64,000 bases of DNA from Macrostomum lignano (taxonomy: Eukaryota), in the NCBI GenBank assembly GCA_002269645.1, contig NIVC01002210.1:1-64000 (forward strand). The letters are read 5' to 3'. A program made the position numbers and the translations under genes. Below the pieces are notes generated by a model. That model saw only the letters and a program-made list of their open reading frames with translations. It searched no databases and was not told where the DNA came from. The first letter of the stretch is position 1. Each line of letters begins with the position of its first letter. Below are positions 18,417-19,196 of the stretch, piece by piece.

Positions 18417-19196
18417 TTATAGGCAGCCGTCTGAACAGATTTCCAACCATTCCCTCCACTGTAGAACGGTTCTCTCAATTGATAAAAGTAAATACGCCGC
18501 TAGGAGCCCCCGGTTGCTGCTGCGCGCTTCGTAAAGACAGTTGAGATATGTGTCTCTATTTGCATACGCAAATGATACGGGTTCTGGCAGAATCCGGTTG
18601 AGCAACTTTGATAATAACAACCTAGCAGTTCTACCATTGCCGTCGCTAAAGGGGTGTATGGTGAGAAACTTTTCTAGGAAATATGCTCCTGTCACTACTG
18701 CATCACGCAAGATTTGTGGCTCTTTTATGTCTCTAGTTAATTTTACCAGCTGCCGTTCAATATTTTCTGGGGCACTGTAATACACACTCGCGCCTGCTGG
18801 CTTGGCGTGCTTAATTCTATACGATCCCGCATTCGGGAGCAGTCCTCTGCACACGCGTGTGTGAACTTGTCTAACAAACTCTGTGTCAATTAACCCCCTC
18901 GTGTCATTGAGGTGTATTGCCGCACTCCATAGATTGGCTGTGACCATACAGGACCGGGTTTTTATCGCTTCTTCTGCTTCCTCCCAAGTCAACGCCACCT
19001 CTCTCTCCTCAATGTTTACTTCAGTTACGAATGCCAGCCGGGCTAGATGTGTGAATTCTAAGCGCTCCTTTGCGGTCAATCCCTCGATTCTTTTCCTAGT
19101 GTCTGATAACAATCTTTCAATGAGGGGTAATCTGGCGCGCACGCTCTCGTTGCTGAAATAGGGGTTATCAGTTATACCCTCCTCCATGTTCTCCAT
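18417..19196 (-). CDS. Fic/Doc-family protein (putative AMPylase), 259 aa
   Basis: Canonical catalytic motif HPFSDGNGRTAR (18656-18621), upstream RQVH...AGSYR motif, and C-terminal R..YL..L..AR helix. Confidence 0.93.
   Translation of the reverse strand: MENMEEGITDNPYFSNESVRARLPLIERLLSDTRKRIEGLTAKERLEFTHLARLAFVTEVNIEEREVALTWEEAEEAIKTRSCMVTANLWSAAIHLNDTRGLIDTEFVRQVHTRVCRGLLPNAGSYRIKHAKPAGASVYYSAPENIERQLVKLTRDIKEPQILRDAVVTGAYFLEKFLTIHPFSDGNGRTARLLLSKLLNRILPEPVSFAYANRDTYLNCLYEARSSNRGLLAAYLLLSIERTVLQWREWLEICSDGCL

Follow-up and report, generated by a model that had tools for sequence, protein, structure and literature searches.

A Fic gene carried by a polymerase-less Polinton-type element in the flatworm Macrostomum lignano

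Animals are usually credited with one Fic enzyme, FICD. In the flatworm Macrostomum lignano, the 64,000-nt stretch of contig NIVC01002210.1 analyzed here (hereafter, the window) holds a Fic gene inside an integrated virus-like element. This raises the questions of whether the gene is a genuine part of the element, where it came from, and what use an AMPylating enzyme might be to a mobile DNA of this kind.

The Fic gene and the element that carries it

The gene (18417..19196, minus strand) is an intronless open reading frame (ORF) of 259 amino acids, with a class II Fic fold in the structural model. A public protein labeled Macrostomum lignano, a free-living flatworm, is 98% identical to its product. 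Its product matches the Pfam Fic family (PF02661) over residues 103-199, with an E value of 4.8e-14 and 53.4 bits against a cut-off of 24. In the ORF translation, the catalytic motif HPFSDGNGRTAR (H181-R192, residues 181-192; 18621..18656, minus strand) agrees with HxFx(D/E)GNGRxxR, the canonical motif of AMPylating Fic proteins as defined in the available text of PMC3667792. The original prediction of a fully canonical motif is thus borne out, as is its placement of Fic nearest the right terminal inverted repeat. This repeat occupies 19262-19931, and Fic is the first gene inward of it, with its ATG at 19196, 66 nt from the repeat start. Direct reading of the sequence also revealed a putative TATA-like site, ATAAATA, 24 nt upstream of the ATG (19220..19226, minus strand).

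The AlphaFold model of the protein has a pLDDT of 82, and its residues 15-259 align with residues 187-441 of human FICD (237 residues, Z 26.4, rmsd 2.4). The model matches other class II Fics with the N-terminal helices included, whereas for most class I and class III chains the alignment starts only near residue 80, and every top match in Foldseek and VIA was a Fic protein. The protein shares its fold, the canonical motif, and a helix ending in a conserved glutamate with class II enzymes such as human FICD/HYPE, C. elegans FIC-1, and Shewanella SoFic. However, identity to these enzymes is only about 20%, and the element's protein has neither TPR repeats (no Pfam match) nor a membrane anchor; no signal or membrane segment was detected, the maximum 19-residue hydropathy being 1.03.

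The element spans 6031-19931 and measures about 10.5 kb once a nested insertion of 3.36 kb is discounted. Repeat comparison delimits terminal inverted repeats of about 670 nt (left, 6031..6699, beginning ACTACT; right, 19262..19931, ending AGTAGT), flanked by the 6-bp target-site duplication CACAGG (6025..6030 and 19932..19937). The GC-rich repeats also contain ORFs, but these recur in mirror image in the two arms and are treated as chance frames. In the 21 nt adjoining the terminal hexamer on its inner side (6037-6057 and 19905-19925 in the window; copies L002-L069), the copies differ in block-like variants while the remaining repeat sequence is well kept, and several single insertions have different variants at their two ends, which suggests end swapping through recombination.

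All element genes lie on the minus strand. Next to the left repeat stands a predicted capsid module, composed of a putative packaging ATPase of the FtsK/A32 type (209 aa, 6782..7411; Walker A, 30-42% identity to genes adjoining the polymerase gene pPolB elsewhere in the genome), a putative adenain-type cysteine protease (145 aa, 7446..7883; homologs adjoin pPolB, best E 1.8e-11), a predicted major capsid protein (427 aa, 7880..9163; about 30% identity to genes of pPolB-bearing Polintons), a basic ORF that may be core-protein-like (114 aa, 9193..9537; 80% identity in a sister family, family B), and a penton-like, putative minor capsid gene. The last is split in the window into a 3' part (9581..10225) and a 5' part (13590..14084), which are joined in other copies, and autonomous Polintons contain weakly similar genes (best E 1e-5). 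The capsid, protease, ATPase, and basic ORFs had no Pfam or PHROG match, and the module's names were given because of homology to genes adjoining pPolB in the same genome and because of motifs; the protease name draws on such motifs. The insertion that splits the penton-like gene (10226..13587) was absent from 17/17 other interiors read. It is AT-rich, is bounded by imperfect inverted repeats of 36 nt (CCC..GGG), has a 2-bp duplication, and resembles a noncoding CACTA/CMC-type transposon; it contains a short repeat present elsewhere in the genome.

Beyond the capsid module lies an rve integrase (14088..15166; Pfam rve E 8.7e-10), whose C-terminal part we take to be chromodomain-like; its frame is disrupted near 14430 in the window and uninterrupted in 7 of the 17 others. 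It is followed by a 208-aa ORF of no assigned family (15300..15926; homologs in two autonomous Polintons) and a 129-aa ORF ending in an amphipathic GGFLPILAKI segment (15929..16318; homologs adjoin pPolB). Next comes a shortened TBP-like gene (16357..16724), with a Pfam TBP match below the cut-off (E 2.5e-4). Its frame is disrupted near 16450 in the window. Of 17 other copies, 16 have it open and the last was matched only in part; the natural open frame of one copy is predicted to fold like TBP. No in-frame ATG was found for the gene in family A, to which the window element belongs, or in family B. Three ORFs separate this gene from Fic: one of 226 aa (16744..17424), without a Pfam or PHROG match and kept in family B with a dN/dS of 0.08; one of 171 aa (17517..18032), also kept in family B; and one of 117 aa (18029..18382), which travels with Fic in family A and in older relics, is absent from family B, and gave no homolog outside the M. 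lignano genome, no Pfam or PHROG family, and no fold match in the searches made. As to the TBP-like genes themselves, they lie at 16357-16724 in the window, at L033:8848-9225, and at L403:6316-6954; the shortened form has a 126-aa core with a predicted TBP fold, one autonomous Polinton has a full-length TBP homolog (Pfam E 9.5e-21), and TBP-like genes are named in a figure legend of PMC8502044.

The original prediction called the element an animal polintovirus, and this holds insofar as the element is integrated and of Polinton type. A 6-bp target duplication is typical of Polintons, and the element has such a duplication, long terminal inverted repeats, and an rve integrase, together with capsid, penton, protease, and packaging ATPase genes that are probable homologs of those of pPolB-bearing elements. 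Matching 6-bp duplications were found in 14/16 copies with both ends, at 13 distinct sites (one further copy is mismatched and one looks chimeric), and in 3/3 family B copies inspected. The label does not hold in the strict sense, as no polymerase was found: with one pPolB query taken from the M. lignano genome, no match at E 0.01 was obtained in 76 stretches of families A and B, the window element yielded just a scrap at E 0.08, and the 17 other family A interiors are collinear with it, without any additional gene. The same genome contains at least 119 pPolB matches (91 of 974 candidates scored), and the capsid genes of its pPolB Polintons are about 30% identical to that of the element. Since pPolB is missing, the element is not a Polinton proper under the definition in the available text of PMC5499653.

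Compared with Polintons/Mavericks (polintoviruses and adintoviruses), with which it shares the long inverted repeats, the 6-bp duplications, and the integrase, capsid, penton, protease, and ATPase-type genes, the element thus differs in lacking pPolB, in its 10.5-kb length, in its one-strand gene order, in its termini, and in carrying Fic. The termini of families A and B start with ACTACT or ACTACG and those of three autonomous Polintons with AGTAGT, so a simple helper model of shared origin is not favored. Both families (family B at loci L083-L102), at about 10 kb, with capsid and integrase and no polymerase, are candidate helper-dependent Polintons; capsid genes and fresh insertions without a polymerase point to the existence of such elements in animals. 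No description of a capsid-bearing, polymerase-less animal Polinton family was found in the accessible portions of the Polinton literature searched; the available text of PMC4028283 describes the opposite loss, Polintons that lost their capsid genes. These element families may be as interesting as the Fic gene itself. Among the autonomous Polintons, one has a pPolB carrying an endonuclease VII domain (L394:4957-8283; Pfam E 6.6e-8).

Fic across the copies of the element

A search of the genome for Fic gave 70 matches, with 80/80 candidates scored. Among the best 30 loci, 16 encode the full 259 aa, 1 encodes 257 aa, 2 encode 231 aa, 5 are shortened, and 6 have no start; many of the small indels may be assembly errors. 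The gene is a constant part of its family: where a family A capsid was matched, on 27 contigs, Fic is present on 26, and the exception stops at the contig edge. A separate genome-wide Pfam Fic search (40/40 candidates, 37 matches) recovered only family A, host paralogs, and FICD.

Family B, the sister family, has a capsid 85 to 90% identical, occurs on about 30 contigs, and has the same backbone, again without a polymerase. Neither Fic nor the 117-aa ORF was present in 20/20 stretches from 10 family B loci, and Fic was likewise absent from 32 stretches of the genome's pPolB-bearing elements. Because family B shares the backbone and does without the gene, Fic is optional cargo: fixed and selected in family A and dispensable for the lineage. 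A survey of Polinton-like contigs for Fic was proposed with the original prediction; among the elements read in this genome, Fic was found only in family A and the older relics, and the viral loci scored provided no Fic accompanied by element genes. A single-protein Fic scan of viral contigs gave no match, alignment and pattern scans of viral and metagenome loci returned mostly phage and bacterial Fic among the matches listed, and the scored viral loci contained two kinds belonging to the element's subfamily (a contig represented by L103/L104 and a 638-nt fragment), neither with element genes. A capsid scan for relatives of the element found none.

The variation among copies indicates how the gene is maintained. 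Ten distinct full-length alleles differ by 16 synonymous and 16 nonsynonymous variants (pN/pS 0.30), and dN/dS ranged from 0.25 to 0.49 in 9/9 pairwise comparisons, which include broken relics at a dS near 0.5; some of the copies compared are dead, so this estimate is blurred, and a tenth comparison, to the host gene, was saturated. The motif HPFSDGNGRTAR is unchanged in 19/19 family A frames long enough to include it. Fic is under purifying selection, and the gene is genuine, intact, and kept by selection. It could still be imagined as a near-neutral passenger hitchhiking with a successful element family, given that family B dispenses with it and that its constraint is weaker than that of core genes (dN/dS 0.03 to 0.10 in the capsid gene, well below the values for Fic). 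However, a dN/dS below 0.5 in every comparison, relics included, and the invariant motif leave this reading largely refuted and very improbable.

Older relics (L057-L062 and L385, on C40, C1500, and C2311) have a broken Fic and the 117-aa ORF at 73-77% nucleotide identity. No other element genes occur in the stretches read, and they are regarded as traces of an earlier relative. Recent bacterial origin or contamination is ruled out by the 13 insertion sites with target duplications and by the spliced sister gene in the host described below. ESM Atlas returned bacterial Fic clusters only, which we attribute to the limits of the atlas.

Transcription of Fic is weakly indicated. In 4/4 runs that belong to four studies and are presumed to be RNA, contigs extend over Fic and the greater part of 13601-19290, with nearly zero coverage of the flank at 20000-20473. 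It is important to consider that the element is multicopy and the flank single copy, so DNA carry-over could give the same coverage picture.

Relatives and origin of the gene

In a quick tree of 93 rows, a worm gene present at C458, C2412, and C42 groups as the sister of the element's Fic (SH-aLRT 99), and in a careful tree of 39 rows, the clade of this Fic with the C458 gene has a support of 100/99. Both trees separate the element's Fic from nematode FICD and from bacterial Fics, and it does not fall in the FICD/HYPE clade in either. The worm's own FICD is a distinct gene with introns and SNAIEG, located elsewhere in the genome; capture of FICD is ruled out by this gene and by the trees.

The phylogeny that had been suggested as a check therefore resolved the separation from FICD and bacterial Fic, and it placed the nearest kin elsewhere, in a spliced host gene and in a subfamily of eukaryotes and giant viruses. 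The initial comparison with bacterial effectors and FICD had missed this kinship, which emerged from the two trees and the subfamily profile search. Among the best 120 of 1,311 profile matches, the named members of the subfamily are an amoeba's, two chytrids', and a beetle's (the last being ILUMI_10812), and they rank above bacterial Fics. Another member (L103), which scores 236 bits against the subfamily profile, belongs to a viral contig of 93 kb and stands amid Rpb2, Lon, FtsJ, dUTPase, and TFIIS genes, which we read, from this gene content, as probably that of a giant virus. The D position of the Fic motif is N in 38 of the 48 rows of the subfamily alignment and D in the element's protein.

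Splicing is evident in the host sister gene: an exon lying 5.6 kb upstream matches residues 17-77 (33% identity, E 3e-6), its donor and the acceptor are in phase, and the three loci share this protein stretch. The gene has at least two splice junctions. The gene adjoins a second Fic paralog, and no element repeat or gene was found near it at the loci examined. The three near-identical loci fit the recent genome duplication of M. lignano. Since the host gene has an intron and the element copy has none, capture through spliced RNA is the simpler reading, and the element likely acquired its Fic from the spliced host gene. The reverse direction deserves consideration, although we regard it as unlikely: the subfamily would travel on eukaryotic DNA viruses, the element would have brought Fic into the worm, and the spliced gene would be a domesticated copy that gained introns. 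The patchy distribution of the subfamily, with its giant-virus member, fits such a history, the other flatworm Fic paralogs are single long frames, and the tree is silent on direction. On the contrary, the host gene has its splice junctions and 5.6-kb intron, and sits beside a second Fic paralog with no element repeat or gene found nearby; family B and the autonomous Polintons lack Fic. This alternative bears solely on where the gene came from and does not conflict with the functional side of the explanation that we prefer.

Besides FICD, the worm has at least three further Fic types (L051:4439-4678, L052:2298-3040, L052:4610-5596, and L063:4817-5551), two of them in tandem, and one of these types has a sister gene in an actively spread virus-like element. 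The second tandem gene apparently lacks an equivalent of the element's E64, discussed below. The careful tree neither recovered nor rejected a grouping of the four flatworm Fic types into one clade (p-AU 0.35). Several eukaryotic Fic groups arising from repeated transfers are described in the accessible part of PMC4454073.

Fic genes in animal DNA viruses are already precedented, by annotation in a nudivirus and by structure in white spot syndrome virus. The "FIC protein-like protein" of Oryctes rhinoceros nudivirus (B7SV90), an accessory gene of an animal DNA virus, is the third viral structural match of the model, and the top one is wsv406 of white spot syndrome virus (Q77J09; 259 aa, TM 0.64, E 1.3e-8). 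For the latter, UniProt gives no functional name; its match to the Fic model extends over 236 columns, and it may be an unrecognized Fic. The giant-virus contig L103 encodes a Fic of the same subfamily as the element's. These three, unlike the element's gene, reside in large self-replicating viruses, at 23-33% identity, and no functional study of a viral Fic was found in the literature searched on nudivirus, giant-virus, and other viral Fic proteins. Nematode Mavericks reportedly carry a host-derived enzyme gene, a cargo of another type, and those elements encode a polymerase.

In agreement with the original statement that no Fic was known as a Polinton or adintovirus gene, no report of one in a Polinton-type element was found in the literature on Polintons, Mavericks, adintoviruses, and virophages, with preprint supplements, figures, Repbase, and subscription papers outside the scope of the search. 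Fic is not mentioned in the main text of PMC8502044, PMC10748475, and two 2026 preprints, nor in the available portions of the supplements of PMC8502044, PMC10120064, and PMC11131425, and it is not among the adintovirus accessory genes in the accessible part of section 8 of PMC8502044. What is new here is Fic as cargo of a Polinton-type element, of a polymerase-less family, with a nonstandard inhibitory helix; the larger viruses provide the precedent.

Regulation and possible roles of the enzyme

According to the original prediction, the inhibitory helix is degenerate and the enzyme possibly constitutively active. The segment in question, TEVNIEEREV, is present at residues 58-67, and the literal inhibitory motif (S/T)xxxE(G/N), as given in the available text of PMC3667792, is absent: the sequence reads VNIEE-R, with both the S/T and the G/N missing. 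To this extent the helix is degenerate, but its glutamate is most likely kept. The AlphaFold model has an N-terminal helix at residues 42-61, in the same chain as the Fic domain, which is the predicted class II arrangement, and the model and alignments together place the end of this helix at F56-E64 (19005..19031, minus strand), with E64 as the likely inhibitory residue. In the 48-row subfamily alignment, E64 is present in 43/43 rows that cover the column, including 10/10 nearest rows, and position 59 is E or D in 41/43, while E63 is variable. The subfamily helix has the form [YF]xxE(V)(W/N)xxE in place of the class II motif. In the host paralog, E64 is retained but E63 is not; in two dead relics, V stands in place of E64 and E66 is retained.

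Alignment to class II enzymes is largely consistent with this assignment. A profile-profile alignment to 101 class II sequences put E64 on the class II glutamate twice, with column confidences of 4 and 6 of 9, and in the same pairing N61 matches the N of SNAIE, and L69-T70 match LT. With HMMER, the subfamily profile aligns to human FICD in a register three residues off, leaving the FICD glutamate unmatched. Of the three alignments, two therefore match E64 to the class II glutamate. E64 is most likely the regulatory glutamate. In the accessible portions of PMC3667792 and PMC6408439, this class II residue represses AMPylation and supports deAMPylation, and its retention in the element's protein makes a switchable enzyme likelier than a constitutive one. 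The missing literal motif and the unmatched glutamate in HMMER would suit an unregulated effector. However, an invariant glutamate ends the equivalent helix, the host paralog has the same residue, and an unregulated AMPylase is described as toxic in animals in the available part of PMC8233689, yet 16 loci keep the gene at full length. Constitutive activity is unsupported by these observations, and we consider an unregulated effector improbable.

The explanation that we favor, to which we would assign a probability of about 45%, is that an intact and selected Fic gene on a 10.5-kb polymerase-less element was captured from the host and encodes a glutamate-regulated enzyme acting on a host protein. 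Under this scheme, the element would insert by its own integrase and may be packaged in its own capsid, and its DNA would be copied in trans by a polymerase of coresident Polintons or of the host. Fic, acquired through spliced RNA from the spliced host gene, would be expressed early from the TATA-like site beside the repeat and would both add and remove AMP. It would act on a cytosolic or nuclear host protein in ways that help the element to multiply, and would counter a host response, the simplest way being to imitate or undo the work of the host Fic paralogs. A cytosolic or nuclear target is likelier than BiP because the protein has no signal or membrane segment. Suppression of the unfolded protein response, one of the roles proposed originally, is unlikely, both for this reason and because the model covers only residues 187-441 of FICD; BiP itself is discounted as a target in view of the missing membrane segment and the separate clade.

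The target may also be sought in a helper. Fic would then modify a polymerase, capsid, or TBP-like factor, and the element, as a satellite, would divert the replication or packaging of autonomous Polintons. An element without pPolB in a genome with so many pPolB matches invites this view, as does the restriction of Fic to a dependent family, with none in 32 autonomous loci; one autonomous family also shares the TBP-like and 208-aa genes. Nevertheless, family B is equally polymerase-less, about as numerous, and devoid of Fic, the termini are unlike those of the autonomous elements, and a host gene is either the ancestor or the descendant of the enzyme. Modification of a helper appears to us rather improbable. 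A broader formulation is put forward tentatively and with less confidence than the explanation favored above: a capsid-encoding, polymerase-less Polinton satellite lineage would have taken a spliced host Fic whose subfamily, spread over eukaryotes and giant viruses, has a distinct type of inhibitory helix, and would use the enzyme to AMPylate or deAMPylate proteins of the host or the helper.

Addiction, another of the roles originally envisaged, is weakened by the existence of the Fic-less family B. In its most concrete form, Fic and its 117-aa neighbor would constitute a toxin-antidote or enzyme-partner pair guarding the element from loss, as both genes occur in family A and the older relics and both are missing from family B, and Fic toxin-antitoxin pairs are established in bacteria according to the available text of PMC3667792. 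Against this stand the apparent inhibitory glutamate within Fic, with which no separate antitoxin is needed, the position of the 117-aa gene downstream and its dissimilarity to known families, and the many family A copies with a broken Fic. A small upstream antitoxin of the class I kind, bearing (S/T)xxxE(G/N), was not found, only 66 nt lying between the repeat and the Fic ATG. Such a pair is thus a distant prospect.

If the broader formulation given above, that of a Polinton satellite using a captured host Fic on host or helper proteins, is correct, AMPylation would be a weapon in an animal conflict among host, virus, and satellite, in a worm accessible to RNAi. The multicopy Fic and the natural Fic-less sister family make a convenient system for asking what use AMPylation is to an animal DNA virus.

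Two further genes were noted in the window outside the element. A 1,026-aa frame at 31059-34139, with an ARID domain in a GC-rich exon, is probably part of an ARID1-type host gene. At 57320-62305, a single 1,661-aa frame combines a ZNFX1-type helicase with a PARP catalytic domain and resembles an antiviral host gene.
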